From: Apus apus
Taxonomy: Eukaryota
Assembly: GCF_020740795.1 (NCBI RefSeq)
Contig: NC_067282.1
Span: forward strand, 18,025,172-18,089,171
Length of the DNA: 64,000 bases
Reading direction: 5' to 3'
Every line of letters begins with the position of its first letter. Position 1 is the first letter of the stretch. Position numbers and translations under genes: made by a program. The notes below the pieces were generated by a model. The model ran no database searches. It was not told the origin of the DNA and saw nothing but the letters and a program-made list of their open reading frames with translations. This document shows positions 1,667-48,192 of the stretch, piece after piece.

Positions 1667-3149
1667 CTACAAAATTAATTTAAATTATTTTTCGTCCTCA
1701 ACCACAAATCAGTTTTCAGGTCATACTTTAAGCAGCATTCAGATCAGATTGAAAACAGAAGGGATCTTCACAGTAATGTAGTCTGAATTCCTATATGAAG
1801 TCCTAAGTTTCCACTAATTATTTTTTTAATTGGAACTTTCTTTTTAAAGCAACATCCAATTATGTATTAAAATTTTTCCACAGATCTTAAATAACCCATT
1901 CTGATTGTTCATCTTCTTCACTATTGTTAATGTATGGTTTAAAAACTATATGTCAAGTAAAAATCAAGTAAAACACTTATAAAAGCTTCACATTAAGTAG
2001 TAGAAAATTACATCCAATAACTACAAGAGGGAAAAAAAAAACCTACCATACACCAAGTTATTTTTTTATAAATGACTAACCAGTAATATCTTCCCCATGT
2101 TACAAACAGCTCTGCATTTTCAGAGGCACACCTCGACTTTGTTTCTCACAAGCAGACAGTCCTGAAAGAATGCTGTTAAACTTTGTAAAAAACCAGTCTT
2201 GTGTATGTGGAGAAACAACTGAAGCAAAAGCTGTGTCTTCAAAGCAATTCTGACACCCAGATGAGAGCAACTGCTGTAAAGTTGTTAAGTCGGCTGAATG
2301 CCCAGGTCTTAGCTTTTGACTTTGAGTTATTAAGAGTATAGCCTTGAAATTGCAAGGGAAAAAATGGCTGTGTCATTGTATTTGTGCCACTGTGCCAACA
2401 CCACACAGCAGAAAAGAAATGGCACTGAGGTGCAAGGCTGATCACCCAGCCTCCATCCTTACCTTACTGACCAAGGATAAGTGATTAAGCAATCTGAATT
2501 CTGCTCTCCTAAGGCTAAGCCCTAAGTTCATTTTCTCAGGTAGGCAGAGAGAAAGAAAAATAATAATTGAAGTCAGGTTGGACTGATACTGCCAGCAGGA
2601 GAAAATACCCCTCTCTAAAAGCTTTTTTCAGACCAGCACTGCCTTCTCCCTTTGCACACAGCAAACAAGACTGGAAAACTGATCCAGGTTACAAGTTGTT
2701 TTTCAATACAGACAAGCAACATCCATTTAGTCTAGTTCAGTTCAACACCTGAACAAATCTGTGCTGTGTGAGCACAAACAAGGAGGGACCACTTCATTTG
2801 GATACACTGACAGTTTCAACCAATCAAAAGTATTGTGAGAAACAGCTAATCAGAAAGGAAAGCAACTGTTTTACACTCTCTTCTACTTCAAATATGTTAT
2901 TCAGAATGAGGGCTCCTATCATGGCACATATTGACCAAGTTACAGCTGGCATTTTATAAAAACTTAATAGTGTTCCTTCTGTAGTATCACTCAACTTGCA
3001 GGCACTGAAGGGATGCAGCATTTATCTTTGACTAACCAAGTAGTCTTAAGATGAAGAACACTAAATATACTTTCAAATTTTAACTGGAAAATGAGATTAG
3101 ATTCTTCAGTTTACTCCAAGTCTATCACACACTTGCTTTCTCAACTTAC

Positions 3150-3273
3150 CAAGAACTGCTGTCTGGCCAGACACCATGCTAAGTAGCTTCTGCTGCTCTT
3201 CCATTAGCCTTTGAAGTTGCTCCATCTGTTGTTTCTTCAGCTGTTCCTGTTTCTGTTGTTGCAATTCCTTCAG
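3150..3273 (-). CDS. CENPJ: CENPJ coding exon (coiled-coil segment)
   Basis: Minus-strand [41 protein letters not shown] matches human [42 protein letters not shown]. Acceptor aaaag|CTG, donor G|gtaagt. Confidence 0.85.
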
Positions 3274-3720
3274 CTTTTCAAACAAAAAAAATTAATGTAT
3301 TAGAGGCTAGGTTTACTTAGGACATACCACAGTATTAGTGTCATAAAGACAAGAGGCATTTCTTGTTTTCAAGATATTCCATTATGTGACTGTAACATTA
3401 AGGAAATTAATATTTTTTTAATCTATGAATGCACATGCAATTCCCAGTTTGCCCAATTAGCAGTTCCACTAGTCTTTAATTGACTATTCTGCAAACAACA
3501 GGAATCAGAACACTCATTTCTACTGCATGGCAAAAGCATTCAAATTCTCCTCTTTTAATGTTAACTTCCTCTATGCTGTGTTTTTATTAAAATGTGAAAA
3601 TACTTCATAATAATTTAAACTTCAGAAAAAGTGTGTGGGATTTTTTTTTTCCTTCCCCCCAAGATCTGAGTTACAGCGAACAGTCCTGACACAAAGGACA
3701 AAGAGAGGATCAACCTGCCT

Positions 3721-5222: not shown

Positions 5223-5667
5223 CTGTTCAAGCTTTTGTAAGAGTGGATCACTGTGATCAGATTTATTCTGACTATGCACTTCACCATGGACAAAGTCTGT
5301 TTCAGAGGTTTCTATGTTACATGTTGCTGCTGGAAGAGATGTTTCGGTGACATATTCCTGGAGTGTACAAGGGCTGCCAGCCTCTTCACACAAGGAGTCA
5401 TCACTTAGAGAACAGCTATCCGAAAGATGCAACACTTCAGCAGCAAAAGCTGTGATGTTTTCTGGTCCAGGTAACTGATTTTCTTTATTGACTTTCAAAC
5501 CAGCAAAAGCAGGATCTAATAGAACTCCAGCACGGGAACTGTTGGACATCCATTGTGCAATGAGGTTCTGTTCACTGCTCGGATCTTCAACAGTGGGCAT
5601 CTTGTAGATTGTATTCCCATGTATTTGCTGATGTAGCATTAACATAACAATATTACGTTATGTAGTA
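5223..5667 (-). CDS. CENPJ: CENPJ first coding exon (ATG at 5645, alternative ATG at 5600; 5' exon boundary approximate)
   Basis: Minus ORF MLMLHQQIHGNTIYKMPTVEDPSSEQNLIAQWMSNSSRAGVLLDP...DPLLQKLEQ matches the human CENPJ N-terminus [32 protein letters not shown]...DPLFKKLEQ. In-frame stop 4 codons upstream of the ATG at 5645. Donor CAG|gtaaaaat at 5221-5222. Candidate acceptor cctag| at 5668-5669. Confidence 0.8.
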
Positions 5668-6659
5668 CTAGGACAGTAAAAGTTTCAAAGTTCCAGGTAT
5701 TTGGTATGGATGGTTATCTGCTTTTAACACCTAGAAATTAAGCAGATAAACAAAATGAGAAATTCACAATAACAGATTCCCAGTAAAATAAAGTTACTCT
5801 CTTATAACCAGCCTACTCTATTTATACAAATATGTCACAACCTGCTTTCCCCTTGGTAATAGAAACTATTTGGACACGTAACAAATAATTTCTGTGCAGG
5901 AAGTCAATACAATCAAACTTTTATGATTTATTTGAGTGGAGCTAATACCTCAAAAATTATAAAGCTGTGTATAATATTCTCTTCAGTAGTAAAGAATTTT
6001 CTTTAAAAGCCTGCAACAAAAGAAGAGAGGTGATTTGAGAAGCTGAAAGACTTTCCACACAGGACCTTCATATTAATGCAAAGTTTCAAATATATCTATC
6101 TAAATACAACTTAAACTGCAAATATTTCATTGCAGCACTCATATTTTTCGTGCTGTACTTAAGTTTCTTGTGGAAGCTCTACAACCATGCTGCCTGTTTG
6201 CTTCTTCCTCCCAACCAGCTTCTTTTTTTAAACCCACTAGAAAAAAAGTTTGAAGACTGCAGAAGTTTCAGTGATAACCAAATCCCTGCAAGTACCATAA
6301 AATATGAATGAAGGCAGGTAGGAGACCCAAAGTGATTTTTTCACTCGGGAAGGAAAAAAGACAGAACTGCTGTCCATTACGATGTGCCAAGAGCCTGACC
6401 GCTCAGCCTTGCCACCTCCAGGCAGTCCCAGGACAATTAACTCCCATTAGGAATGTCAGGGGGACACAAGAAAGAGGCCCCTGTCAAGAGACAGAGAACC
6501 ACAGCAGCCCAGGTTCAACAGTCCTGTTGATAAGGAAGTAACTTCCTAAAGCCCTAGAGATCAGTTTCTGCCAGCTCTCACTTAATTTTCTCACTGTAAA
6601 ACTAAGTTTGAAACTCTGAGTAGGAGAAGCTGAAATTCCCTCAGGAAAATGTTAATTCA

Positions 6660-7620
6660 ACTGCCTTGTTTCGAGACGCCACGGGAAGCTTCCCAGCGCG
6701 GTTCGGGGTGCTGCACAGGCCAGCTACGGGCAAATTCAAGCCGACCGGGTTGTCCTGTCACCTTTTCGAGACCCCTTCCAAGCAGCCTGCCAGTTTAAAG
6801 CTTCCCTTCCGCTTTCGTGCCAGCCGAAAGAGCTGGCAGGGCTGCAGCCCACCCCTCTCGGGGAGGCCAGGAGAGACCAAGGGGGCCCTCCCAGAGGCCG
6901 CCGGCGGGGAGACGAGCTCCTCGGCCAACCCGCGGGGTCAGGCCCGGCACGTCCCTCCCCTCCCGGGCACGAACGAACAGCCCCCCGGGCACGAACACCC
7001 CACGTACGCCCCCGGCTCTCGCCCAGCCCCGGCCCGAGGCACCCGCACCGCACAGCCCGGACCCGCGGCTCCCGCCCAGCCCCAGCCCGAGGCACCCACA
7101 CCGCCGCCCAGGCCGCTGCCGCTGCCGCCCCGCTCCTGCGATTACAAACCTGCCGCCACCGCGCGGCCTCCCGGCGCCGCGGGCCGGCACCGCCCCGCCG
7201 CGGGGCATGCTGGCCGCTGTAGTCCCGACCCGCCGCCGTTCCCGCCCGGCTGCGGGGCGCTCCTGGCCGCTGGAACTACAGCTCCCAAGAGGCTCAGCGG
7301 CGAAAGGGCCGTTGCCGGGCAGGAAGCGCGCCCGCAGGCCCCGCGCGTTAGGGGCGGGAAGGGCGGCGGTGGCGGGGGAGCGGTTCCCTGCGGCAGCTGG
7401 GGCTGTCCCGCGGTGCGGGGCTGCTGGAGGCGGCTCCCGGGGGTTCCCGCGGCTCCGAGGGTGGCTCCCGGGGCCGGCGTTTCTCGTCGGGCGGCGCCGT
7501 TGCTGTCGGAGCTGGAAGGGCCGTCTCGGCGCGCGGAGGTTCCGGAGCCGTGAGCTGTCCCCTCAGGGCGTGCGGGTGTCTGCTGGGGTGAGGCTTTGGG
7601 CTTCTTCCCCGCTTTTATCG
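6660..7620. promoter_or_regulatory. CpG island, candidate bidirectional promoter between CENPJ (-) and PARP4 (+), with 5' non-coding first exons
   Basis: About 1 kb of very high GC and CpG density flanked by AT-rich sequence. It sits between the divergent first coding exons of CENPJ (5667..5223, minus) and PARP4 (11347.., plus). Candidate PARP4 exon-1 donors GGG|gtgagg near 7586 and GCC|gtgagc near 7549. The ORFs in the track here are GC-composition artefacts. Confidence 0.7.
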
Positions 7621-10600
7621 CGGCCGCTTGCACCCTTGTAATTCTTAAATACCTGCAGTTGTGTAAACCCAGGGCAGCCCTTTCATTTGCCTGCTGCTAG
7701 TTTTAATTTCAGGTATGTTTGTGGTTCAACCAGGCTCTTTTCTGCTAAACTGCCAACCATCTCTCCAGCACTTTTCTTTTGTCATTATTAATATATCGTC
7801 TACATTATTTTCCTCTGACTGGATTCTGCCTTAGCAGTGGGAAGCTGCCGCGCTAGGAAATAAAACTATTTGTATGGCTGCTTTTTTAAAGCATCACATT
7901 TAGTCCCTTTGACATCGTTAGTAGGAAGACGCAGCAGAGGTTTGTTTTCAGTTTATCTACACACCGGAGGCCTTACAGTACTACAGATTGTTCGTTGTCA
8001 GTTGTTGGGCAGTAAAAAAATATATTTTTTGCTCCACCTCTGTGCTAAAAATGTAATCCATATAGCCTGTGAGGCTATTGGGGCCTTACAGATGTCCACC
8101 AACATAAAACTGTAAGAATTAAACTAGTGATAGTTGTCAGCAGTTCCTGTTTTGCATAACTTCCTTATCCGGTGCTGCAACAACATGGTATTCCAGTTAT
8201 AAAAGTGTTTATCAGGAGTCAGTTAATTCTCCACACACCGCTGAAATACAATAGTTTTCTGATTTTGAATTCTGGAAGTTTATCCATTTGAAAAGAGTAA
8301 AGCCGAACACTGCTAAAATTCCTTGAGAAGTTTGGTTCTCTAGGAAAATGGGGGAGGAGGGGCTAGTGTTCAGTGGTAGCGTTATTCATCAACAATGAAA
8401 GGGAATAAAATCTTCACTCAAGGGAGAGAAAAACTGCTGCGAACAGACTTTGAACAGATTTTAGCTCCTGCTGTCAGGTATTCCAAAGTTCACTTGAGCT
8501 TTAAGAGTGGCTGTTTCCTCCTCCTCCCCAGTGCAGTGAGGGTCAGAGCTCCTCACTCTGCAGCTCTTTGCTTGGTTCATTTCTCTGACGCTTTGGTGTG
8601 TCCCTTCGGGCGTTTCACAGGAAGGCGGGAGTGCGTCCTAGCCCCTCCTACCTGCAACGCCCCGGCTTTCCACTTGTGCCTCATGCTGTTGGGGGAGAAG
8701 ACCTTTCAGGGAAGGCAGCTTCCTAAGCAGGTGAGTGTAAATACTTGGCTCCCTCACAGAAGAGGAGTGGGATCAGGGGTCATTTAATGCCTCTCAGACT
8801 CGGAGGAAATGAATCCCTCAAGCTTCCGCATTCCTTTCTGCTTACTGTACTGGCTGACCTGCGGTTTATTTACAGAGCAGTTCTAGCAATATGTTTTTTT
8901 CTCAGATCTTAGCAGCTTGATTTTCATAGGAAAATGTAATATCAAATACTTTTGTAGGGTTTTGTACCACACGCACCTACCAATTTGGGTTGCTTCTGTT
9001 GTTTTCCAGATAAAAGATGAACGTGGAGGCAGGGCTGGTGCTTGCAATTGGTTGTATTTCATTACTTTCTAATAAACTTCTTGTTTTGGCTGTGCAAATA
9101 GAGTTCATTATTTCCTCAGGACACAACCTCTGGTGATACTTTTGCAGTATCCAGAATCTGCTTTAGAGAATATATTGAGAGAATGAGTGCACACAGAACT
9201 CTAGTGAAGAGGGAGGCAGTGTCCAGATCTATACAATGGTTACTAAAGGAAGCCTTTGGCAGTGGCACATTTGCCCTTATATATGCCTCAAATTAATCTG
9301 TCTTATTTGTGACAAGATTCAAAATAAAGTTGGTAAAAGGATCTTAAAATAAGATTTTATACCACAAACTACAGCTTCTTAAAGGTACAGTTTTCCACAG
9401 AAATTAGTTGGAACAAGGCTGCATTGTAAAACACCTCAGATAGCATAGTATCCCATGAAAATCTCTCAGTTAAAACATGGAGAGTTGTTTTTTTGTGTGT
9501 GCAAAGAGTACTTTTTTGTCAAAAACAGTAATGTTAATAAAAAGCAAAAACGAGCCAGAAAATACAAGTATGTGTTACCTGATGTGCGCTTTGATCTGCT
9601 GTCTGCCTGACCTAAGTGCACATATTACCATTACAGGGTAATGAGTTCTATCAGGTTCATAGTGTAGTAGTAGATTTGGCCTTTCCTATAGATTACGTTT
9701 CTGAGATTAAATTATATAGGCATGTATAACATTGTGTCTCATAGTGTTGATTTCCCAGGTTTTCATGAAACCCCAAATTCAAAGGAATTACGTTGCTCTC
9801 TCTCATGGACTAACTACTTATTTTTTAGCAAATAATTGGAGTTATTCCATGGTAGCTGGTCATCTGATTCCTTTTTTACTGCACTGAAGAACAACTGTAC
9901 TTGCATACACTGAAAAGCCAGTAGGCCATAGAATAAGAAAATAAACGTTCCTTAAATGTATCATAGGTAATGTAATCTAAATCCCATCCCAAAATTACCT
10001 CAGGCTACTGTGTTTTGTTTTGTTTTAATCTGAAGCCTTATTGTAATCATCTGCTCTAGACTTGGGTCCACAATAAATTCATCAAACAATAATCTTAGAT
10101 TATGAAGTGCTGTTGTCAGAGCCACTTAAACATTTCTTCTGCATTGTTACTGTATTTTGGTTTATTCTCTCTCCACACTGCAGTGGAATCTTTCTGCAGG
10201 GCTGATGTAAAGGTTTTGTTGACCTTGAAAAGCTTTGGTGCAATTTGACCAATACTAATTTTTTAAGCCAGAAGAACCAATAGGGTATTTAAATTCTTTG
10301 CTTTTAGACCTTGTGAAGAAACTATTCTAATAAATGTAGCCTTAATTTGTCATTCGTAGTGCAGAAAAATGTGAAGTGGTAAATGAACGTAAGTAGTTGA
10401 AATGGTGTCTGCTCTCCTTTTTGCAGTCTCTAATGTAGATGTTGTTCATAGAAGTAAGAGGATAGGTGCTCAATCAAAATTTGCAGCCTAGGTAGGAGCT
10501 GTCATTAACTTGGAGAAAGCTAATTTTTGCTCCAGATGGTCTCCCTAAGATAGAGGGCACTTAACACCAGACATCTTTGGCTAACACAAGAACTGCTTTC

Positions 10601-11346
10601 CTTTCACATTTACTTTCAAACATGCAATTTCTTGTTTGTTCTGCCTCCTTCTGTGAGTCCAGAATGGACTGGGAGAGGCCAAGTATGATAACTTTGTCCA
10701 GTTATCTTACAAAATTATTTGGCCTTGTGTCCCTGATGAAACATTTACATCTTCAGGTAGGTTTTCCATACAAATAGTTAAGTAAAAACAAGTTTTTTAC
10801 CAGTGAACAACCCTCTGGATGAGATACGGACATGGTGTACTGAGATCCAAAGAATCACAGGTTAAAAAAAAATAAATGACCTGAATGTTTTGTTTTACAA
10901 AAATGAGCATGGCAGTTAGTGTAGCATTTAATAGTGTGTCTGCATTAGCAGTTTGGCTTGAAGCAGAGATGCAATTTTAAGCAAAATCTTTCGGTTGTCA
11001 AGAGCAGCCTTGTGTTGATTAAGTTCTCAAAACAGTGTTGAGGTGTACCACCTGAATGCCTTTCAGAGAAAAGTAAGCTGGGTGCTTTACTTCAGGTAAG
11101 CTTGATGTGGCATTGGTTTTGGCCTCTGTCTGAGCTCACCCAGTCATAAGACTCTCTGGCTTGCACTTAACACTCATTTGCCACTGAAGGGCTCTGAAAC
11201 CCTAGAAAAACCCACACCACACTGAGAAACTCATATGCTATATAAGTTAGAGTTGTGAAGAATGTCTTTGGTGAGAGACTACTTGGGTACATAGTGGAAA
11301 TGAAAGTTTTCTCAGCCAAAAAAAAAATTATTTTCTCTTTTAACAG

Positions 11347-11479
11347 GAGGGAAATGGCAATCTTTGCAAACTGCATATTCTTTATTAAAGTTAAATACTT
11401 AACCATTCAGGAGAGGAGCAGGCTGAAAGCATCCATACAAGAAAATGGTGGAGTAATTAATTTTGTGCTTAATCACAAG
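11347..11479 (+). CDS. PARP4: PARP4 first coding exon (ATG 11354), BRCT start
   Basis: acag|GAGGGAAATGGCA; MAIFANCIFFIKVKYLTIQERSRLKASIQENGGVINFVLNHK vs human PARP4 MVMGIFANCIFCLKVKYLPQQQKKKLQTDIKENGGKFSFSLNPQ; donor AAG|gtaagt. Confidence 0.9.
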
Positions 11480-12864
11480 GTAAGTTCTAGATTTATTTCT
11501 GAGATCTCAGTAGGAAAATATCAAGTGGTGCAAGTGTCGTAGAGTGTTAATCTTGCCATATGGAGAGAAGTAAGATCTGTAGAGATTATGTCTCTGTTCA
11601 ATACTTAAACTGAAATATTCAGTTTACATTCTTAATGCATCTGGCTCTGTAGTACTGAAATGTCACATAAAAAATCAAGAGTAATATTCTCCCTCCACAA
11701 GAGAACCAGGGAGGGTTTTTTTCCTGGATAAAATTGCCATGCTGTTTTTCTCTCTTCAACAAAGAGGGGAATCTCTGAATTAGGAGATGCATCACTGAAT
11801 TGGGTTTTGGTTATGTTATTGCTAGTGCAATTATTTGATTACTCAGGAGAAGATGGTTGTAGAGTTAGAGGTCAGTGATACTGCTGGGTTTTGTTTAAAT
11901 CCTGCATTATATTTTGAATATATATTGAACATGTAGCATGGATAAATCTAACTTCATAGTGAAGGCTTAATAACTTGTTACTTCTGCCACTTGACAGTGA
12001 CATTTATTTCCTCCTTCCCATTGCTAGTAATTAGAGCAAGCTCATAAATACTGTCATGTTAGAGTGCTTCCTTCTAATCCACTTTGGGGAGAAGGTAATG
12101 CATTTCAATTTTTTGTTGTCTCTGTATATAGTTTTTTTAATTTTGAGAATTAAGTGAGTTAATTTCTCCTTCTCTATCTTGCATAGCATTTCCCGATATA
12201 ACATTGGGTCAATTACTTCAAATCCTACTGTTACATATAATTCCCATAGGTGACTGTCATTTTACAAACATCAAAACTTGTATACACTGCCCTCAAGTGT
12301 CGCTAGTTTACATTGTGCATAACATAAGGTGTTGGCATTGAAGGAAAAAGAAGTGTTAAGAAAAGGAATATTGCAGGTACATTATTGTCTTGTTCAGAGC
12401 CCAGATGTTTCCTGGTGACTCTGACAATGCGCATCTCTTTAGGAGGGAAAGTGAAGAGTTGAAGAATAACATCAAGGTCTAGCAAGAGCAATTCAAAGGT
12501 GTGATAGAGTTCTTTGCACTGTAATTTCAGGATTCTCTAAGACATGTTGACACACCTCTTTGCAGTGGCTGTGATCTTGTAAAGAAGCAATGAGTGGACA
12601 ATAATTAAGGCTCACATTTATCCCATCAAACTGCTGATCTCCGGATATGATTTTGGGGGAAAAAGTCAGGGAAATTCCGTCATAGAAACAATAAACTTTG
12701 CTAAAAAAAACCTATTAAAAATAGCAAAACAATAGCAAATAAACTAAGAGTTAATGCAGTACAAATGTATATTAATTGAAATCTGTATTTTGAATAATTC
12801 AGTACAGTGAGAAAGATACTGCAGCACCTAAAATTTGTGATCTCTAGGATGCTGGGATATGTCC

Positions 12865-13515
12865 TTCGGTGAAGCCACTGAGGCGAGGAACACCAGAGCA
12901 AGGGATTGTGCTGGTGGACTCCTTCTGCAGAGCCGAAGCTGCAAGAAGGCCAGTGGTGTCCTGGGGTGTATTAGAAAGGGTGTGGTTAGTAGGTCAGGGG
13001 AGGTTCTCCTCCCCCTCCATTCTGCCTTGGTGAGGCTGCATCTGGAATATTGTGTCCAGTTCTGGGTCCCTCAGTTCCAGAAGGACAGGGAGTTGCTTGA
13101 AAGAGTCCAGTGCAGAGCCACAAAGATGATTAAGGGAGTGGAACATCTCCGTTATGAGGAAAGGCTGAGGGAGCTGGGTCTCTTTATCTTGGAGGAGACT
13201 GAGGGGTGACCTCATCAATGTTTACAAATATGTTAAGGGCGAGTGTCAGGAGGACAGAGCCAGGCTTTTTTCAGTGACGTCCAGTGATAGGACAAGGGGC
13301 AATGGGTGCAAAGTGGAGCATAGGAGGTTCCACGTAAACATCAGAAAATTTACTGTGAGAGTGACAGAGCACTGGAACAGGCTGCCCAGAGAGATTGTGG
13401 AGTCTCCTTCTCTGGAGACTGTTCCTGTGTGATGTGCTCTAGGTGACCCTGCCTGACAGGGGGTTGGACTAGATGATCTTTTGAGGTCCCTCCCAACCCT
13501 TAAGATTCTGTGATT
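12865..13515 (+). mobile_element. CR1 LINE 3' fragment (ORF2 C-terminus + 3' UTR)
   Basis: ORF 12859..13209 translates to the CR1 ORF2 C-terminal consensus (...[77 protein letters not shown]...). Followed by ...GGTTGGACTAGATGATCTTTTGAGGTCCCTCCCAACCC and an ATTCTGTG tail. Confidence 0.9.
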
Positions 13516-14105
13516 CTGTGAAAAGAAATGTGTCCAGCAGGGCCAGGGAAGGGATTCTGCCCCTCTGCTCTGCTCTGGTCAGACCCCACCTGGAATACTG
13601 TGTACAGTTCTGGTGCCCTCAGCACAAGAAATATATGGACCTGTTGGAAAGGGTCCAGAGAAGGGCCACCAAGATGATCCAAGGCCTGGAGCACCTCTGC
13701 TATGAAGACAAGCTGAGAGAGTTGGGGCTGTTCAGCCTGGAGAGGAGAAGGCTCCAGGGGGACCTTATAGCACCTTCCAGGACTTGAAAGGGGCTACAGG
13801 AAAGCTGAGGAGGGGTTTTCATCAGAGAAAATAGTGATCAGAGAGTATAGGGACAATGGTTTTAAACAGAGGGGAGATTTAGGTTAGATATTAGGAAGAA
13901 ATTCTTCACTATAAGGGTGGTGAGGAACTGAAATGGGTTTCCCAGGGAGGTTGTTGATGCCCCATCCCTGGAGGTTCTTAAGGCCAGGTTGGATGAGGTT
14001 TTGTGCAACCTGGTCTAGTCGTAGGGTTCCCTGCTCATGGCAGGGGGTTGGAACTTGATGATCTTTAAGGTCCTTTCCAACCTTAATGATTCTGTGATTC
14101 TATGA
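13516..14105 (+). mobile_element. Second CR1 LINE 3' fragment, abutting the first
   Basis: ORF 13518..13787 is CR1 ORF2 again ([71 protein letters not shown]). 3' end GGTTGGAACTTGATGATCTTTAAGGTCCTTTCCAACC plus TGATTCTGTGATTCTATG tail. Lies in PARP4 intron 1. Confidence 0.9.
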
Positions 14106-14276
14106 AGTGTTTCTAAATCAGATGTTTCAATTAAAATGCAGTCCAGATGGGCTGTCTGGTTTTAAATGTTTCATTAGGACTCAAGGCTTGTATCAGTATG
14201 AATTTCAAATAACAGTATTTTTATTAATATTGTAATTATGTGTGCATAGCAACTTTAATTGTAATCTGTCTTTCAG

Positions 14277-14472
14277 AGTACATACGTTCTTGTGGATACT
14301 GCTGATGTCTTGAGCTGTCGTGATCTAGAAAATATTCAGAAGTACCAGGTTCCTGTTTTATATGCAGATTTCATTTGGAAATCAATTGAAAAGGGGAAGC
14401 TTTTAGAGATTGATTCATATAAGGTTAACAAATCACATGATGACACTTCTGACCAAAGGCCTGGCAGACAGG
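14277..14472 (+). CDS. PARP4: PARP4 exon (BRCT domain)
   Basis: tttcag|AGT...; STYVLVDTADVLSCRDLENIQKYQVPVLYADFIWKSIEKGKLLEIDSYKVNK... vs human THIILDNADVLSQYQLNSIQKNHVHIANPDFIWKSIREKRLLDVKNYDP; donor CAGG|gtaggt, phase 1. Confidence 0.9.
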
Positions 14473-15438
14473 GTAGGTATAAGTGACGTAGTTTATTCAT
14501 CCATCAGTTTCTTTGGGAAACAATGTTTTAGAAGATGAATATGTAAACTTGCAATAAAGTTGATTAAAGAATATCAGTTTTTCAGAAAATAATTCTTGTT
14601 CCATTTTGTGGCTTCTTTCCATTTATTTTTTTTTCTTTCTTTTAATGAAACTTCAAATAAGACTTCAAGATGTAATTGTGGATAAAAAATTGAAAATAAC
14701 AAAGAAACTACTCCAACGACTGTCTTTATCTGACTCCTTCTTAAATTTTTTTTTATTTTAACAGAACAAAGTGGGTCTTCAGTGGGTCTTCACTTTATTT
14801 TATGAATACTCTGATGTGAATCATTATAAGTTTCAGAACTACATATAATAATAAGATTCAAGACCCCTGCATTTGTGCCTTTGCTGTGTCATTGAGTCTG
14901 TTGGATAAATCTGGTTTTGCAGAGCATGGCTGAAGCTGGGTAGATCCATTCAGTACCAATCCTAAATAGTTTCAAGCTAAAAGTAAAACTGCATTCATAC
15001 ACTGTATCTATGCAACTTAAAAAAAAAAGGAAGAGAGAGAAAAGCAAAGGAAACCAAGCAACCAACCACACAAACTCCCCAATACCAACATTAGCCATGG
15101 AAGAATAATTCTCAGGCTCTGTGGTCAAGTGAAGAAGTGCAGCTCTCAGCTCCATGCACTAATTCTTTTTCCCGTTCCTGTCATAGAAGTCAGGGTGGTA
15201 GGAATAAGCACTAACATAGTCCAGGGATGTACTACTGAAGGGCAGTTGCCCTTCAGTACTTGACTCTGTGTCCTGCCAGTTATATGGCTGAACACACTGT
15301 GACCTTAAAAGCTATAACTTGCTTCAACATTTAAAATGTTCATGAATATGAAGTGGTAGTATTTGTTTGATTAACCATTTGTAAGTTAAATTAGAGAAAA
15401 CAGCTACTATACTAAGTGAATAAATGTTTTGCTTGCAG

Positions 15439-15550
15439 CTGTGGAAGACCTGTCATCTTCTAAAAATAGAAGTGCCACAAAGAAAAATGAAAACAACAAT
15501 TACAACCCTACTTTTTTTGAAGATAGTGAGAGCAGAAATGAATCTGAAAG
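15439..15550 (+). CDS. PARP4: PARP4 exon (low-conservation linker)
   Basis: gcttgcag| acceptor and AG|gtaaag donor. Reading frame stays open in the phase handed on from the previous exon (AVEDLSSSKNRSATKKNENNNYNPTFFEDSESRNESE). Lies between two well-matched exons. Confidence 0.65.
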
Positions 15551-16689
15551 GTAAAGTAAAATAAAATATGCATTTTGATACATCTGTGTTGATATTTCTA
15601 TAAATTGAAAAAAACCCAAAACCAAAACAAACCTCCACTTCCCAGTCTGTTTCAGTGACTTCTGGAGACAGCTCTTGTTATCTAAACAATGTAGTTGAAG
15701 ATAAAATTGTTCTTTATTCATGTTCTGTATTCTGTGTAGATGAATTTATAATGGCTTCTTTTTTATTTTTTTTTACTTGTTTCTCTTTTTTTTTTTTTTC
15801 TTTTTGACCTTCAGATCTGATGGTGGAAATTTATTTTACATTTTTCCTTCTCAGTGTCTCAGTGTACACCTACAGTCCAGCTCCCTGATACATGCAAAGC
15901 TACCAATTCTGTAGGCATTAATATGATTCAAGTTTTATGATTGGACATCTGCTTATCATCACAGTTTTTTCTTGATTCACATGAGTTTTTGTAATCCAGT
16001 CTGATTCATTGTTTTTAGAAGTGCTGAGCATCTGTGTTTCTCTTGAAAATTCTTGGAAGACCTGAAAATGAAGATAACTGAGACTGCTTTTAGCTGATAG
16101 GGAAGCAGAGTTGTTTTAACTGTTTCTACTTAATGAGTTAAGACAACAAAACCAGCTCCCACACTCTTAAATGTATTAACAAGATGCAGTTTTCACTTTT
16201 AGAGACTGCTGTTCAGTCATAGGGTAGGTATTTGGCTCCTCTGTAGGAATGCACTGGAAATTACACTTTGTCTAAATGTCCTGATGCTAAGGGATGCAAT
16301 TACACGTATAAATCCTCATGTGGAGCTCAGAAATAAGGGAGGAGTTAGCTTCAGACAGTACAAGCAGCTGATTAAGCTATTAAAAAATTAACATGTAACC
16401 AAGCAATGAAAATGCATTTATCATGTTGTTTACATAGTTTTTTTTAAAGTATGAAGATTGAAATCTAGTTTTCAGCTCTACACTAGACATTCTGGCCTGT
16501 TCATGCAGCAGCTTATCCAAGTGGGATTTCACATGTCAAACTTTTTTTAGTTGTTATTTTGCTGCTGAAAAATAGTTCTGTCTTTTTACATTAGTTCTTA
16601 CTTTAGTATGAAGTTGCAGCCTATTACAGCATGGTATTTACTGGGCATACATTATTTTAATTGCTCTGATTCTGTTTCATATCTTACAG

Positions 16690-16759
16690 TGAAAATGATC
16701 AAGATACTCCTTTTTTTCCCCAAGATTTTGAAGTTGCAAAATACAGTGTCCTTGAAAAA
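16690..16759 (+). CDS. PARP4: PARP4 exon
   Basis: ttacag|T...; ENDQDTPFFPQDFEVAKYSVLEK vs human HLPQDFEVAKYNTLEK; donor AAA|gtaagc. Confidence 0.9.
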
Positions 16760-17286
16760 GTAAGCCCTTCTGTTATTGTGAGAGAATTGTAGGGGGATCA
16801 GTAGTTGAATAAAAGGTTTACAGTTTTAAACACATTAGCAATAACTCTTCTATGTCATCCCATACTGCAATGCAAAGAGAAGTACTGAAAAGTACTTCAA
16901 TGCTTTATGTCTTTCAGTGCAGCCTAATTCTACCCACATAAAACTTTGCTATTACTGCTGTTTGCTTCTGACAAGATACGTTATCATGGCTGTTATGTGT
17001 TAAATTGAATTTAAATTTTTAACTTTTCTATTAAAATTCTTTCCAAACACAAAAATTATTGAAGTGTTCAGCAACCAATACAGTGAAGCCCTGAGAGGAG
17101 CTTTTGCTTGTTACTATGATACAATTAATGACTCATTCTGCTTCTCTTCTTAGCCAGTGTGTGTGGTTCTAAACAAGGAGAAAAGATAAGTAGGACAAGG
17201 GAAAGTACTTGGCGCAATATCATGTGAATGAAACATACTTAGGCAATAAATTTGGGGTTGGGGGCTTTATTTATCTCTCCATTTAG

Positions 17287-17400
17287 GTTAACTCCAGTGA
17301 AAGCAAGGATTTTGTAGTTATTGAGTTACAGTGTGCCCTAGAGCCTTGTGCGTTTCCATTTCGACTATATGCACACTTCAGTACATCAGATGGAGCTGAG
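17287..17400 (+). CDS. PARP4: PARP4 exon
   Basis: catttag|GTT; VNSSESKDFVVIELQCALEPCAFPFRLYAHFSTSDGAE vs human VGMEGGQEAVVVELQCSRDSRDCPFLISSHFLLDDGME; donor GAG|gtatga. Confidence 0.88.
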
Positions 17401-18138
17401 GTATGAACCACTCATTGATGTTACCTGTTTGTTTCTTTGTGCGTGCTGAGTGTACCCACTCCAGAGCTTCAGATGCTTTTCATCCTTCTTTACAGGCTAG
17501 TCTGTGGGTATAGATAATAGGAGGTCATTCTGTTAGGCTCTGCGTTTATAGTTGGCTCCTCTATTCTGTGTTTGCTTACAACTTGCTCAAAATAAGTCTT
17601 TTGGGACTTGGCTGCAACACAGCATGGTCTTGGATGCACCTGCCTCATACTCACACGTATCTTCCTAGCAGTATCTAAACTGTATAATGACATGTTTACA
17701 TGCTGAAATGCTGTAACAAGTGAAACTCTGGACATGTTAGTGAGAGAAAAGCTTGTCTTTAGGGCAGCCCGAATGTTTCTTAGCATACAAGTTACATGTC
17801 CACTCCAGGATAGCACTTGCAGTCTGTGTCACTTTAACATTATATTCAAGTCAAAGGAGCTGTACCAGGGATGAATTTCGAATAGTTCAATTGATAGAAC
17901 AAGTTCTTCCAGCACACATTTAGATGAACCTATGTTGTCACTGTGGGGTTAGTATATGGAGCACTGTGCTTGTTCTTTGTGTCCCATGAACCCTTACGAA
18001 AGCACTGCCTTGCTGTAAACAAATCACAACCCAGAAGGTTAAGTGTGGATTGTCAGCTGTTAGAGCAAGGCCTGGTAAAATGGATTCTTTAAGTCACTAT
18101 TTAGTTTCTTTGACTAATTTTACTCTTTCAATTTACAG

Positions 18139-18265
18139 AATCATAAACAATTCCTAACTGGTACTGCTGAAGAAATCAGAGAAAAGTACTGTACTTTTAT
18201 TGCAGACCTGAAGAGCCAGGATTTTCTGCTCAGAGAAACTTTTCCACCAGAAGCAGAATCTTTAG
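18139..18265 (+). CDS. PARP4: PARP4 exon
   Basis: atttacag|AAT; NHKQFLTGTAEEIREKYCTFIADLKSQDFLLRETFPPEAESL vs human ...YFENYIEELKKQGFLLREHFTPEATQL; donor TTAG|gttcta, phase 1. Confidence 0.85.
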
Positions 18266-19508
18266 GTTCTACAAAGTTGCAAAAGGCCTGTACAACTTGC
18301 GTGTTTACACTTTTCTTTCCTTTACAATTTGGTTTTGTTTCAAGTTTTCTGAATGTGGTAAACGTTGTATAGATTACCATGATGCAGCCATAGGTTAAGA
18401 TAAACTGTTTACATGTCAAGTTTTGGAATTAATTTTTTTTCAGAATATTGAATGAAGTACTAATTCAATCAATGTGATACATAAAAAGTGATGTGCTGAT
18501 ATAGCAAACAGAATTGTTGTGTGATGTATGACTTTGTCAGAATTATTCTGCACACTATACAGATGTCATAGGCTTGATGTAGATAGTATTGGAATCAGTA
18601 ACAGGACTGCCCTCAATGACAATAGCAGATAGATTCTGCTCCCTAAAATACACTGCAGACAATGTTTTACTGCTTTTTAAAATGGTTGTAGTGTGACAGA
18701 ATTTTTTTCTCATTGTACTTTACCTGCTTCTCTCTTCCACCATGGTTGGCTTCTATTATAGGGCACAGCTGGCACTTAGATTATATCCAGCAATGTTGAA
18801 AGGCCCACATATGTCCACCAGTGATCTCATAAGCCTTGTGGTTAATGCCATATAAACAAGTAATGTAGAATATCCAAACTTGCATGAGAATTGTACAATG
18901 GCATCAAGTTTAATGGCAGTTTCTGGAGTTGTAGAACACTGAGGAAAAGCTCAAGTCAATTTTTAAACAATGTTTCTCAGAAGAACATAAGAAAATCTGT
19001 TGTCACAACTCTCTATGACGTATGAATTTAACTGGTTTTCATGGCCTTTCTGTTCTCCCGTAACTTTGCTGCTCCTATTTTTTATTTTCATGGAAATAAT
19101 GTCTTTCCCACCAGAGCTCTCTGAAAGAGACCTGGTGTCATCTGAGAGGTGTTAGAAAACACTGGCCATTTTGAACCATCTGTTCTTTCACCAGCTGTGC
19201 AAAAAAGGAAATGGCTGGGGTCTGCAGGCTATTATTTCCATATACTTCTGTCTTCTTCAAGACTTCATGTCTCAATTTTCAAGAGAGGTCATGGCCACCT
19301 GCCTGCTGTGCTGTCCACTGGGAAGAATTTATAAAAGCAAACCTTCCTTGAGCTCAATGGGACCAAAGAAATTATACTAAACATGAATTAACACTGTATT
19401 TTTTATGATAATAATATAGTTCAGTTATCTGTGCGAGAACATCGCTGCTATTACTTCCATCTTCGTCTTTTCACTGGATTGTGTTTATTTTACTACAGTT
19501 ACTTCTAG

Positions 19509-19636
19509 AAGAAGCCATCCATTCAAGTGTTATATGTGAGGAAGTGAGTGACTTTGTGGAACTGATCTGGGCAGAAACTGTTGGCCATCTGGATAGTTTA
19601 CTGCTTGAATCAGTGAACAACATAAGCCTAAATGAT
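19509..19636 (+). CDS. PARP4: PARP4 exon (downstream of two tandem acceptors; only this one keeps frame)
   Basis: cttctag|AAGAAGCC...; (E)EAIHSSVICEEVSDFVELIWAETVGHLDSLLLESVNNISLND vs human LLLEEVMNSSTLSQEVSDLVEMIWAEALGHLEHMLLKPVNRISLND; donor GAT|gtaagt. The upstream acceptor ctacag|TTA at 19499 would be out of frame with the phase-1 end of the previous exon. Confidence 0.75.
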
Positions 19637-21581
19637 GTAAGTTAATTCTTACTGTTCTGTGAGGAAGAATACATAAATGCTGTTAGAAGTATTTTTTTCC
19701 CAGCAAATGTGTATGTTGTGTTTCAGATTGTAATTACACTTTTGATACTTCTGCACTTCAACAAATCTGTGCTTCAGAAATTTTTGTTTCAAATTTTGTT
19801 TTAGAATCATGTCACTAGAAAAATGCTGTAATTCTTAGGCCAGATGCCTGTCTTTTCCATTTTATAGCAATTTACACAATTCCCATGGGAGTATCCCTTC
19901 AATGAGATAAGTCAGGTCACATAAGAAGGTATTCATAGAAGACATTGCATAATAGCAGGTGGCTGTCTCCTGCCATCTTTCGTGTAACCATGCTTCAGTC
20001 AGCCATTCTCTTGCAATGAAAAAATAGTTCTAATTATAGTCCTTGTCTGCATTATCAGATGGCACATGTAATTATCACACAGCTACTCTTGAAGGCCTTT
20101 GGATTTTACAGCTGTTAACAAGGGTAACTGCATATCCACCCCCTTTGTTAACAATATGGCTTGTTAAATCCCACTTTCCCACATACCTCAATTCTTTTGC
20201 TTTGCTCCCGAGACGTTTAAGAGGATAATGTTTATTCATCCAATTTAGGTTCATATAACTTCACAAATGGCCAACAAAATGTCTGTTTAAGACAAAAGTG
20301 TTTTTCATCTCTCTTATCACTGAAGGCAAAGTTACCTGAAGATTATGTTAGTTTTAAATTGGAAGACCATTGCCAGTAGAAGGTCCCCAATTCTGAAATT
20401 ACTTTGCCCTAGTCTTATTACATGAAACTCACTTTTGATGCTCTTCAGTTGATGTATGGTAGAAGAATATTGCTTTCACTTTTTGATGCAGAAATAGTAC
20501 ACATTTATGTAGGTTCTGGTGACTAAGCAGTACATTATTAATATTGTATACATGTACTCAGAGACAGTAGTGAGTGCACTGCATAAATCAGCAGACGTAA
20601 ACTAAATGCTGTTTATGGTAAGTGCTTTTTATGAGGTGCAGTTGTTTGGATATTAAAATTCCTAACATATTTCAGGTAGGTGAAATTTGATAATAATTTT
20701 ATAAACAACATTCAGTCACTGGAATCTTTTGCAAGAGCTGAACCATAGGCTTAAAAAATTCTGTATCTCAATGCATCAATCTGCAAGAATATGATAAAAC
20801 TGTTTTCCCTAACTTTGCCCATGTATAATCAAATTGCAAGCGAAATAGCATTTGTATTGAAAGAAATAAAATCTTTGGATTTTTGAAAGACAATAGTTAA
20901 GTGTGTGGCTATTCAGTTAGATTAATCCTCTATTTTTTTCAAAGGCAGAGACAGAAACCAGTCTTGGATCAGTACTGAACTGCAGTAAGACATTGCTGTA
21001 CAGCCTCTAATGTCAACATTTTACTAGATATTGCCTGTGGTTCATGTAAATTATAAAGCATTTTGCCTTTTTCCTCTTGCATTGAAAAGACAAAATAATA
21101 TAGTCTGTGAAAAATTTCCAATTGAGAAGGAATATACAGATACAGGCAAATCTTATGTCCTGTATGTCAGTACTTCTGTTTTATTTGTAGATTGCACTTT
21201 ATAATTAGGACTTTGACTCTGCTTTATGTATTTTAGGACTAATTAGTGCACTTCATCCATGCATTAAAGCTGAATTAATAAGATTTTAAGGAACATTATA
21301 TTTCAATCAGATTCATATTCTGTTTTATTTCAGGGAGGTTATTTTACTGTCTCTTAGCTCTGCTTGAGGTACTTCACAAGTAGCCCAGTATAAGAGCAGC
21401 ATAATATCCAGCTTTTAAATACTGTTCTCATATACCAGCTGCAAGAAAATACTTTGTGGGTATCGCACTAACAAGAGTTAAAGTTGTATTTCAGTGTGGA
21501 ATTAAATTATGCATTATCTCTATTTATTGTTCTGTGCTCTTTCTGCAATAGCTTTCAGTTCAATAATCTCTTATTTTAAAG

Positions 21582-21755
21582 GTGAGCAAAGCAGAAGGTA
21601 TTTTACTCCAAGTAAAGAATGCACTGGATGAGGGAGCTGGCGAGGCGGCACTGCGAGAGATGATGATGGAATTCTATCGAGTTATACGTCACAAAACTGA
21701 AATAGACTACACAGTTTCCAAAAAGTTGCTATCTAGAAAACAGGACCTGTGTCAG
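21582..21755 (+). CDS. PARP4: PARP4 exon
   Basis: tttaaag|GTG; VSKAEGILLQVKNALDEGAGEAALREMMMEFYRVIRHKTEIDYTVSKKLLSRKQDLCQ vs human VSKAEGILLLVKAALKNGETAEQLQKMMTEFYRLIPHKGT...LLAKKADLCQ; donor CAG|gtaact. Confidence 0.92.
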
Positions 21756-23780
21756 GTAACTTTCTCAGATTGCTAGGAAGCTCTGATCTGCACTGTGCTA
21801 CAACAGTTTTGAACATGGTCACTAGATAAATTGACAGGATAGTTTGCCTAGCTAGTTACAGGCTGTCAGTTAAAAAAATTATTTGTTGGAATCTTGTGAG
21901 TAGAGTAATGCTCAGGAGGGGAATGCAGTGGGTTGAACAGGAAGACTAGTTGCTGTCCAGATGGTGATGAGTTACTACTGCAATCATTGTTGTGATGGCC
22001 TCTTCAGGTGAATCAAAAGAGAATCACAGAACTGTTAGCGTCCAGCTGATCCTTGCAACTACTTCAGCATATATATAATCGCTTTCTATTGATTACCTTG
22101 AATTATATACAACATATATCTAAGCTATTTTAACTATATACTGTGACTGTTTTGTGTACCCTTTCCTTTCTTGCGTCTGCAGGAACAGTTTCCAGAGATT
22201 ATTTACAATTACCAATCAATGTACATCTTGGTCTGTTCCTAATTCTACAGCAGAAACTGCCTGGGGGAGATCCCTGGACTACCTGGATTGTTTAGTGCAA
22301 GAAGTTAGCACATTTAAACTGATAACATCTATCAGTTTGTCTAGGCACAGCTGGCCTGCCTAGGGGGATCTTCAAGGATCTACTCCCCAGATGTCCCCCT
22401 GAGCTCCTGTGTTAATTAGTCAGTTCCTTCATTTTGAATCTGGCTAGGAGTTCAGTCAATCAGGAGTTCAGTTACTGTACTGTCAGTCAGTCCATTGTCT
22501 CATCGTTGCAGAAACTAGTTGGGAAACTGTGAGCCTGCTGGGCTGATTGCCAATGAGGTGTGCTGGGAGTGCACACAGATTCAGCCCTTACAGGCTGGCT
22601 GCTCTTTAAGGGCAAGCAGATGGGGCTGGGGGTGAAAGGCTAGGGCAGTTATACCACTGGCAGTGCCTCTAGTCCCACAGTACCCAAACAGGAAGAGCAG
22701 GGCAGGTGAGAGTGACTGCTGGTGACAGTAGCCAGGGTCAGTCCAAGTTGCCTCCTCATTATGGCTTGTATGACAGGTCCAAAGCCAAACCAGCAACTTG
22801 AGTCCACAGGATCTGGGTCAGAACCAGGGAGATGGGAGGCTGGATGCAGGCATGTTAGCAACATAGCTCAGCCAAGAGACCAAGAGCAAGAGCCTAAGCT
22901 AACAGGCATCTCTTGAGCGAAGGAGGGGCAGGAATTGTCTGAGTCTTCTCACAGCTCTTTCAAGGTTCCACAACTGCACTGTCAGAGCTGGCCCTGAGCC
23001 CAAGCAGCCAGCCCTCTGGGGAGGTGAGAAGCACTCAGAGCTCTCACAGCTACATCACTCTTGTAACTCTAAAGCAAACTCCCATTTCCTCCTTGTATTG
23101 CAATTATAATTAAAATTCCATAGATTCTGCCAAAGATGCCTCTTTCTGTTGGCAAAAGATACCCAGAAGTCAGTCTTCTGTAAGCCACAAAATATAAAGG
23201 TGAGAGAGGTGAGGAGGTGCCTTACTGTTCTAAAAGAACAAATGTTCATAGTATTGTTAATTAAAACCTTTTGCTGTTTCTGATGTAAGAAAAATACCTA
23301 TGTCTCCTAAAGCTCTCTCATGACTTAGCGAACTGTACAATCTTTTCATCCTCCTTTCTCCCACTCTAAGAAAATTACATGGGTGGTTTGTGCTACTGCC
23401 CTGGCTGGATAGTGACGTCAGGGACAGTATGGAAGATTCTGACAAGTAGGGATTGCCTCATAAGTAAAATCAAAACGGTAACCAAGTACAAATACTGGTT
23501 GGTGGAGCTGTTATGAGCAGACTCCATTAAAAGCTTGATTTGGAGCTGTAGAGAAGAAGTTGAACTCTATTTCTCATATACCTTTTCCTTCTGAATTGTT
23601 TTCAGTACGTTCTACAGCTGTTTGCTCTTGTTCTAAATGGTGTCTAACAAGTGGAAATGTTATTTTGGATACTCTATTTAATTGTTACAAAACGATTTCT
23701 TTATATAATTCCGTTTGGTTTGCGTGTTTCCTTAACTAAAATATATCACTTACTCATAATTTTTTGTCTGTATTTTCTAG

Positions 23781-23941
23781 CTAATCAGAGACATGCTTAA
23801 TATATGTGAAACAAGTATGTCGTGCCCAAACCCATCATCTTTGGCCAAGTACCGAGCTCTGAGGTGCAGGATCGAAGCTGTTGACTCAACAAGTCATGAA
23901 TTCCTCAACATTCAACAACAAGTGTTAAAAAACAATTACAA
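23781..23941 (+). CDS. PARP4: PARP4 exon
   Basis: ttttctag|CTA; LIRDMLNICETSMSCPNPSSLAKYRALRCRIEAVDSTSHEFLNIQQQVLKNNY vs human LIRDMVNVCETNLSKPNPPSLAKYRALRCKIEHVEQNTEEFLRVRKEVLQNHH; donor AA|gtgagt, phase 2. Confidence 0.92.
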
Positions 23942-25194: not shown

Positions 25195-25290
25195 CAAATA
25201 AAGTTCTTAAAAAGAAGAAGAAAAAAAACAACTTCACACACACAAAAACAAGCAAACAAACAAAACCAAAACAAACCCCTTCAAATAAAA
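25195..25290. repeat. A/C-rich low-complexity tract (CAAAC/CAAAA-type)
   Basis: aagaagaagaaaaaaaacaacttcacacacacaaaaacaagcaaacaaacaaaaccaaaacaaacccc. Similar tracts at 15590..15640, 32790..32880, 34320..34445 and 37590..37640. Confidence 0.7.
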
Positions 25291-26459: not shown

Positions 26460-26597
26460 TAACTGTCCAGTGAGAATTTTGCAAGTTTATAGGGTTGGCA
26501 GAATAAGTGAAACAGCAGAATTTCTGAGCAGCCTTGGAAATATTCAGTCCTTATTCCATGCATCATCTGTGTGCAACTTCATGGGAATTCTTTCCAG
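26460..26597 (+). CDS. PARP4: PARP4 exon
   Basis: ttcttgcag|T; NCPVRILQVYRVGRISETAEFLSSLGNIQSLFHASSVCNFMGILS vs human VDVLQIFRVGRVNETTEFLSKLGNVRPLLHGSPVQNIVGILC; donor CAG|gtaaaa. Confidence 0.9.
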
Positions 26598-48172: not shown

Positions 48173-48192
48173 TGTGATGCATTTTTATTTAG

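Follow-up and report, generated by a model that had tools for sequence, protein, structure and literature searches.

Genes and coding exons at the locus

In the window, by which we mean the whole 64-kb stretch of Apus apus DNA analyzed here, the centriole gene CENPJ (minus strand) and the vault gene PARP4 (plus strand) form a divergent pair, running 5'-to-5' away from each other with no gene between them. The first coding exon of CENPJ, numbered exon 2, spans 5223..5730 on the minus strand, with an acceptor AG at 5732-5731 that sets the exon start at 5730 and a donor GT at 5222-5221. Its first in-frame ATG lies at 5645, and 5223-5645 gives an open translation of 141 aa; the start codon that birds conserve is the one at 5603 (MPTVED...). 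The exon matched exon-ORF fragments on bird contigs at 61-81% identity. These contigs are collinear with positions 1-7900 of the window, their downstream ORFs match Pfam PF25779 (Tubulin-bind_CPAP), and NCBI calls the homologous proteins "Centromere protein J". The next CENPJ coding exon lies inside a minus-strand ORF at 3109..3291, which is likewise collinear with the bird CENPJ contigs and whose limits are those of the stop-to-stop frame. A protein database query with the N-terminal exon returned exon-sized ORF fragments only, and the NCBI-named bird CENPJ models of ~330 aa (many species) lack this exon. Among the metagenome/Logan contigs, L001-L004 end at the edge of a GC-rich island; only L005-L007 span the island, and none of these three extends to the PARP4 ATG exon.

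The first coding exon of PARP4 (exon 2) was found at 11347..11479 on the plus strand, with an acceptor AG at 11345-11346, the ATG at 11354, and a donor GT at 11480. Positions 11354-11479 translate to MAIFANCIFFIKVKYL..., and this exon joined to the next gives a Pfam BRCT match, with Pfam PARP, VIT, and VWA matches in later exons. A comparison of the PARP4 exons with PDB recovered human PARP4 (E=3e-72). Overall, 27 collinear exon matches from tblastn, covering the BRCT, PARP catalytic, VIT, and VWA regions and the C-terminus, extend over 11354-55898 with no real stop, giving a coding region of 11354..55901 (plus) that ends in a TAA at 55899-55901. Stops that seem to fall within three of the tblastn matches are run-through beyond GT donors and were rejected as disruptions. 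The protein database held just three annotated PARP4 models, all of them partial, and a vole PARP4 fragment locus (L008) falls short of the 5' end. A CR1-like ORF at 12841-13206 was not recognized by Pfam. The ORF list contained no further conserved coding ORF in 5731-11346, and an Rfam scan of the whole 64 kb found zero families, so no ncRNA gene accounts for the interval between CENPJ and PARP4.

Downstream of PARP4, the first coding exon of MPHOSPH8 lies at 58224..58478 on the plus strand (MAAAAAGG…DVFEVEKILDVKTEG, followed by a GTGAGT donor). Its chromodomain carries on into a second exon within the ORF at 62803-63039, and the chromodomain exons match the PDB entry "M-phase phosphoprotein 8" with E ~1e-33. 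The gap from the PARP4 TAA to the MPHOSPH8 ATG at 58224 is 2322 bp, matching the ~2.3 kb given in the initial annotation of this DNA, whose coordinates were all correct with an error of at most a few tens of bases.

The CpG island between CENPJ and PARP4

A CpG island occupies 6621..7720, with 70% GC, 117 CpG, and a CpG observed/expected ratio of 0.87, compared to 0.24 across the window. The 64 kb holds one further island, at 57621..58920, which covers the MPHOSPH8 promoter and exon 1, leaving a single island between CENPJ and PARP4. The exon identities, the strands, and the island scan thus bear out the earlier claim that the two genes stand head-to-head over one CpG island. A counterpart island was observed at ~4000-5000 of the snowy owl locus (L009). 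No TATA box was visible in 7150-7550, and the island is GC-rich and TATA-less in the manner of a bidirectional promoter.

The base composition of the island is also mirrored. At 6950-7150, on the C/A-rich side, GC skew is -0.41 and AT skew about +0.5 (+0.56); at 7300-7550, on the G/T-rich side, GC skew is about +0.33 and AT skew -0.4 to -0.8. The sign flips, and the cumulative skew reaches its minimum, at ~7250-7300. Such C/A versus G/T mirror composition is a property of bidirectional promoters (PMC3082894).

Predicted first exons and divergent SBS2 motifs

The island sequence is otherwise ~60-64% identical between birds, and across the window, the snowy owl (L009), L005, and L007 its best-conserved blocks are a minus-strand splice donor (7141-7158) and two SBS2-type motifs on opposite strands (7199-7223 and 7275-7299). 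The donor block, ATTACAAACCTGCCGCCA, was invariant in the window and in two further birds whose sequence covers it, the owl and L007, and a three-way alignment showed it to be identical in L005 too. It would define a non-coding CENPJ exon 1 at 7150..7200 (minus), with the 3' end at 7150 set by the conserved donor CAG/GTTTGTAATC and a putative TSS at the 5' end. On the other strand, a candidate donor G/GTGAGCT (GT at 7550-7551), whose GTGAGCT is conserved in the owl and L007, predicts a non-coding PARP4 exon 1 at 7300..7549 (plus), with its TSS placed downstream of the plus-strand motif; alternative donors for this exon lie at 7588 and 7714. If the minus-strand donor at 7150 and the plus-strand donor at 7549 are both real, the two TSSs would be less than 400 bp apart.

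SBS2 was defined as ACTACAN followed by an 18-bp SBS with CCCR at SBS positions 3-6 and C at position 12 (PMC3082894, PMC3627581). The two ZNF143-type ACTACAnnTCCC (SBS2) motifs in the island are divergent and separated by ~50 bp. The plus-strand copy, ACTACAGCTCCCAAGAGGCTCAGCG (7275..7299), matches the published probe at 18/25 positions and agrees with the consensus by sequence match, with ACTACA present, CCCA at SBS positions 3-6, and C at position 12. All four birds share an identical ACTACAGCTCCCA portion, and the full motif is the same in the window and the owl. The minus-strand copy, ACTACAGCGGCCAGCATGCCCCGCG (7199..7223), also matches the published SBS2 at 18/25 positions, yet SBS position 3 is G rather than C in the window, so the core reads GCCA and departs from CCCR; the other three birds read ACTAC(A/C)(A/G/C)(C)TCCCAGCATGC, with a CCCA core. 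Exact ACTACANNTCCCA occurs once in the 64 kb, at the plus-strand motif. Allowing at most one mismatch still gives one match, versus 1.36 expected by chance, so motif counts are uninformative and the argument for SBS2 relies on position and conservation. The composition mirror, the SBS2 pair, and the minus-strand donor were counted as kept across four bird lineages.

The ACTACAnnTCCC/SBS motif is one of five over-represented in bidirectional promoters (PMC3082894), and ZNF143 has been demonstrated to drive bidirectional transcription (PMC3082894; PMC3627581). The island resembles the CpG-island promoters with ZNF143 (Staf)/THAP11 SBS2 sites described by Anno et al. 2011 (PMC3082894) and Ngondo-Mbongo et al. 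2013 (PMC3627581) in being TATA-less, mirrored in composition, and centered on ACTACAnnTCCC-type motifs. It differs from them in having two divergent copies instead of one, in that its sites are predicted from sequence, and in the degenerate CCCR core of the copy on the CENPJ side. The composition flip and the divergent motifs fit the shared bidirectional promoter that the initial annotation proposed. A shared promoter region is not in itself proof that CENPJ and PARP4 are co-regulated, which we infer.

Two other readings of the island were weighed. In one, it would serve as the CENPJ promoter alone, and PARP4 would be transcribed from further downstream, from a promoter outside any island or an alternative first exon, near 8600-8730. 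GC content reaches 56% at 8601-8800, a strong consensus donor (CAG/GTGAGT) lies at ~8729, and the stretch to 8742 is conserved in the owl at 78%. However, the CpG observed/expected ratio at 8601-8800 is only 0.38, conservation extends to both the GTGAGCT donor and the plus-strand SBS2 within the island, and the mouse Parp4 TSS abuts Cenpj; we consider this reading very improbable. In the other, two independent promoters would sit in one CpG island, each with a core and regulation of its own, sharing no elements and lacking meaningful co-expression. The presence of two separate, opposed SBS2 motifs rather than one speaks for such an arrangement, but they are just ~50 bp apart, the mouse TSSs are separated by 114 bp, and the owl, with a dead PARP4, keeps a PARP4-side motif identical to that of the window. 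Moreover, with predicted exon-1 donors 400 bp apart (7150 and 7549), the promoters would have to overlap physically, and we regard their independence as unlikely.

Gene order in other species

Gene order in non-primate mammals and primates was compared through the literature for goat, sheep, mouse, and human. In chicken, chromosome 1 is listed as PSPC1, MPHOSPH8, PARP4, CENPJ, RNF17 (PMC10976558), and in goat, chromosome 12 as ATP12A, RNF17, CENPJ, PARP4, MPHOSPH8, PSPC1 (PMC11874128), both sources giving order without strand. On sheep OAR10, GJA3, GJB2, ZMYM2, PSPC1, PARP4, CENPJ, MPHOSPH8, RNF17, and ATP12A fall within 0.58 Mb, a neighborhood rather than a map order and again without strand (PMC11192971). 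The snowy owl locus, alone among the annotated loci looked up in holding both genes, is collinear with 2930-56031 of the window and is head-to-head too, with an annotated 1326-aa CENPJ (minus) opposite PARP4 remains (plus). The chicken list and the owl locus give other birds the order seen in the window, that of an ancestral amniote RNF17-CENPJ-PARP4-MPHOSPH8-PSPC1 block.

In mouse, Cenpj(-) and Parp4(+) are catalogued as divergently paired, their TSSs separated by 114 bp (Yang & Yu 2009, BMC Evol Biol, PMC2670823 Table S2). These are the same orthologues in the same orientation as in the window, with CENPJ on the minus strand and PARP4 on the plus strand. The mouse distance comes from annotated transcripts, unlike the window TSSs, which are predicted and bounded to less than ~400 bp by the conserved donors. 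It is also a distance between TSSs, whereas the 5.7 kb in the window separates the ATG exons, a spacing that would arise because both genes have predicted non-coding first exons.

The human layout is different. PARP4 shares the interval chr13:22.15-24.20 Mb with ATP12A, SPATA13, and C1QTNF9 but with neither CENPJ/RNF17 nor MPHOSPH8 (PMC3279563), and MPHOSPH8, PSPC1, and ZMYM5 are at chr13:19.11-19.36 Mb (PMC3276183). The initial annotation placed human PARP4 and CENPJ on the same strand of 13q12, separated by ATP12A and RNF17, with MPHOSPH8 several Mb away, and these intervals support its account of human. Our literature search found no human gene list carrying all of PARP4, ATP12A, RNF17, and CENPJ. 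Zhao & Schranz 2019 (PMC6369804) report that CENPJ falls in a synteny cluster specific to primates, in which RNF17 and ATP12A were transposed along with it; this transposition accounts for the difference between human and the window. The bird order corresponds to the non-primate synteny cluster of that study, which covers mammals only and discusses neither PARP4 nor promoters. From the human intervals, the primate breakpoint would have fallen between CENPJ and PARP4. This placement also draws on the GRCh38 gene positions.

The human difference, with MPHOSPH8 ~3-5 Mb away and PARP4 beside ATP12A, SPATA13, and C1QTNF9, had suggested that a lineage-specific rearrangement or compaction newly joined CENPJ, PARP4, and MPHOSPH8, setting up a regulatory coupling that had not existed before. 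The comparison across amniotes contradicts this, giving the outcome that the initial annotation had itself named as refuting: chicken and goat have the same order and sheep the same neighborhood, the owl is head-to-head, the mouse pair has 114 bp between TSSs, and the CENPJ/RNF17/ATP12A transposition is reported as primate-specific (PMC6369804). We consider such a rearrangement already refuted and next to incredible; to rescue it, the adjacency would have to have arisen independently in mouse, ruminants, and birds. With the same order or neighborhood in chicken, goat, and sheep and the same head-to-head layout in mouse and owl, this bird lineage retains the ancestral amniote order, and the primate order is derived.

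Our preferred reading, held with high confidence, is a TATA-less CpG-island bidirectional promoter for CENPJ and PARP4, in an ancestral amniote order later broken in primates. The island promoter would drive CENPJ leftwards and PARP4 rightwards from a core of ~150-400 bp (about 7150-7550) holding the two ZNF143/THAP11-type sites. Each gene would start inside the island with a short non-coding exon, spliced to an ATG exon that lies at a distance of 1.4 kb in CENPJ and 3.8 kb in PARP4. The CENPJ-PARP4 arrangement and the tight PARP4-MPHOSPH8 adjacency would have been retained from the ancestral amniote in birds, rodents, and ruminants, and movement of the ATP12A-RNF17-CENPJ block in primates would have split CENPJ from PARP4.

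Head-to-head gene pairs are numerous in vertebrates and include more than 10% of human genes. The CENPJ-PARP4 pair is real but ordinary and already known; it carries little weight as a discovery, being one of many such pairs and already catalogued in mouse. A literature search found no paper treating CENPJ, PARP4, and "bidirectional" together. The useful result is a correction of polarity: birds, mouse, and ruminants show the ancestral layout and human a derived one. The question of a new regulatory coupling consequently moves to primates, where the old pair was uncoupled. The conserved core at 7140-7300 is a compact element open to testing.

Decay of PARP4 at the snowy owl locus

At the orthologous snowy owl locus, PARP4 was observed to be a decayed pseudogene. 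The ATG exon is gone, as is a 22.5-kb block of exons, in-frame stops interrupt at least four exons, and there is also a frameshift. Despite this decay, the locus still has its CpG island, the donor of CENPJ exon 1, and the two divergent SBS2 motifs, with the PARP4-side motif unchanged relative to the window. An intact PARP4-side motif next to a dead PARP4 suggests that the motif also serves the surviving gene, CENPJ. It is possible, though we think it somewhat doubtful, that the shared promoter is kept in essence for CENPJ and that PARP4 is a dispensable passenger. If so, the owl decay and the primate breakpoint would together form a natural experiment on how separable the halves of a bidirectional promoter are, and the loss of a vault PARP would be documented in a vertebrate lineage. 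Our literature search turned up no publication describing the loss of PARP4 in birds, and the decayed gene at the owl locus offers vault biology a small lead.

Gene content and arrangement of the window

The window (38.6% GC, CpG observed/expected 0.24, interspersed with CR1-like repeats) is collinear with bird contigs and a snowy-owl chromosome at 69–84% identity, and its DNA is vertebrate and of avian type. Exactly two CpG islands are present, at 6621–7720 and 57621–58920. Left of the first island lies a minus-strand coding exon at 5223–5645, open over 141 codons, with its acceptor at 5732–5731 and donor at 5222–5221. The relatives of this exon are exon fragments on bird contigs collinear with the window, where downstream ORFs match Pfam Tubulin-bind_CPAP; the homologous proteins are named "Centromere protein J" (CENPJ) by NCBI. 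Right of the island, the first coding exon of PARP4 (plus strand, 11347–11479, ATG 11354) starts a BRCT domain. Downstream exons encode the PARP catalytic, VIT, and VWA domains and match human PARP4 in PDB (E = 3e-72). A tblastn map with a 1724-aa human PARP4 query, equal in length to PDB chain 11jf_P, placed 27 exon matches in collinear order between 11354 and 55898. Three apparent stops within the PARP4 matches are alignment run-through into introns rather than disruptions. The ATG of MPHOSPH8 (58224) lies 2322 bp past the plus-strand PARP4 stop (TAA, 55899–55901), and its chromodomain matches the PDB entry "M-phase phosphoprotein 8" (E ~ 1e-33). All the factual elements of the initial annotation are therefore confirmed, namely the genes, their strands, the island, and MPHOSPH8 within 2.3 kb of PARP4.

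The first in-frame CENPJ ATG is at 5645, while the start kept in all birds is at 5603 (MPTVED), corresponding to the human start region. The upstream ATG (MLMLHQQIHGNTIYK) is in frame and 14 codons ahead; the resulting N-terminal extension is present in many birds and missing or broken in others, such as bird contig L005. The MPHOSPH8 island holds a 21-bp tandem repeat, CCCCTGACCAGGCCCCGCACG, at 57847–58044 (9.4 copies, 90% matches), ~ 180 bp upstream of the ATG, and the N-terminal coding sequence of the gene is GGC/GAG-rich and of low complexity. CR1-like fragments were observed in PARP4 introns at 12841–13784, 38388–38762, and ~ 34480–34570 (ORFs with LEYCVQFW), and this repeat also occurs in a CENPJ intron of bird contig L001. 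A Pfam search of the CR1-like ORF in the window recognised no family.

Gene order across amniotes

Chicken chr1 at 180–181 Mb carries PSPC1, MIR6641, MPHOSPH8, PARP4, CENPJ, and RNF17 (PMC10976558). Goat chr12 at 50.1–50.7 Mb carries ATP12A, RNF17, CENPJ, PARP4, MPHOSPH8, PSPC1, ZMYM5, ZMYM2, and GJA3 (PMC11874128), and the same gene set falls inside 0.58 Mb of sheep OAR10 (PMC11192971). At the orthologous snowy-owl locus (OZ243533.1, locus L009), an annotated 1326-aa CENPJ on the minus strand, with Tubulin-bind_CPAP and Tcp10_C domains, faces plus-strand PARP4 sequence across one CpG island. On mouse chr14, Cenpj (47642620–47687885, minus) and Parp4 (47687999–47776070, plus) form the same head-to-head pair as in the window, recorded as divergently paired genes separated by 114 bp between their TSSs (Yang & Yu 2009, Table S2, PMC2670823). 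The pair is conserved from birds to mouse, and its arrangement in the window is not unusual.

In GRCh38, human PARP4 and CENPJ are both on the minus strand. The separated human order given in the initial annotation is supported by the chr13 intervals: 22.15–24.20 Mb holds PARP4, ATP12A, SGCG, SACS, SPATA13, and C1QTNF9, with CENPJ, RNF17, and MPHOSPH8 absent (PMC3279563), while MPHOSPH8, PSPC1, and ZMYM5 are at 19.11–19.36 Mb (PMC3276183). Zhao & Schranz (2019) placed CENPJ in a primate-specific microsynteny cluster and described RNF17 and ATP12A as "cotransposed in primates" (PMC6369804). Birds, a rodent, and ruminants share one arrangement and primates have another, so by parsimony the window keeps the state ancestral to amniotes, and the rearrangement took place on the primate lineage. 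The suggestion that the swift lineage was itself rearranged is therefore refuted: chicken, goat, sheep, owl, and mouse share the layout or neighbourhood, and primates are the rearranged lineage.

The island as a probable bidirectional promoter

On the plus strand, the CENPJ side of the island is C/A-rich (GC skew to −0.41, AT skew to +0.56) and the PARP4 side G/T-rich (GC skew to +0.33, AT skew to −0.78), with the flip at ~ 7250–7300. This is the mirror composition described as a property of bidirectional promoters (PMC3082894). Our alignment of the island covered the window, snowy owl, and two Logan contigs (L005 and L007), four bird lineages in all. Mean column identity was only 60–64%, and three short blocks stand out. 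The first, ATTACAAACCTGCCGCCA at 7141–7158, reads on the minus strand as a splice donor, TGGCGGCAG|GTTTGTAAT, where a short non-coding first exon of CENPJ is predicted to end (7150). The others are ACTACA..TCCCAGCATGC (7199–7223, minus) and GAACTACAGCTCCCAAGAGGCTCAGCGGC (7275–7299, plus), oriented away from each other ~ 50 bp apart. Each matches 18 of the 25 positions of SBS2, a form of the ZNF143/Staf site (ACTACAATTCCCATTATGCACCGCG). In Apus apus the CENPJ-side motif has lost the CCCR core, and the motif count by itself is not significant. ACTACAnnTCCC belongs to a group of five motifs that bidirectional promoters carry in excess; ZNF143 has been shown to drive bidirectional transcription, and THAP11 competes at SBS2 sites (PMC3082894, PMC3627581).

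For PARP4, the candidate donor of exon 1 (G|GTGAGCT, 7550) is kept in owl and L007. If both exon-1 donors are real, the TSSs would lie within ~ 400 bp of each other, well inside the 1 kb that defines a bidirectional pair. The composition flip, conserved divergent motifs, and donors make the shared promoter proposed initially well supported on anatomy and conservation. Transcription of both genes would begin within ~ 7150–7550, with a ZNF143-family activator at the SBS2 sites, possibly opposed by THAP11, and in each gene a short 5′ non-coding exon would be joined by splicing to the one with the ATG. Such a promoter is an ordinary case of a very common architecture, already catalogued for mouse. 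An imperfect tandem repeat at 7020–7114 (24–29 bp unit, ~ 3 copies, 67% matches) sits in the predicted first intron of CENPJ, in the C-rich half of the island on that gene's side.

Apparent PARP4 decay at the snowy-owl locus

The owl locus, compared in one assembly (OZ243533.1:18028762–18058869), lacks window 8742–11946, including the PARP4 ATG/BRCT exon, and ~ 31650–54129 (22.5 kb), a stretch with the VWA exons and most of the C-terminal ones; no N runs occur at the locus. Among the PARP4 exons that are left, at least four have in-frame stops and one has a frameshift; the locus is annotated with a 207-aa "unnamed protein product". From the missing exon blocks, stops, and frameshift, PARP4 at this locus appears to be a pseudogene. 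A search of the available literature for PARP4 loss in birds found no paper. Next to this PARP4 remnant, CENPJ is still intact, and so are the CpG island and both SBS2 motifs.

A GC-richer patch in PARP4 intron 1 at 8480–8742 (56% GC, CpG observed/expected 0.38), ending in a consensus donor CAG|GTGAGT at ~ 8729, is kept in owl exactly up to the start of its 3.2-kb deletion, and may represent an alternative first exon for PARP4 or else a piece of a repeat. Immediately past the island, ~ 200 bp common to owl (~ 5000–5200 of locus L009) and L005 is missing at window ~ 7655, between CTGCAG and TTGTGTAAACCCAGGGCAGCC, an indel in PARP4 intron 1.
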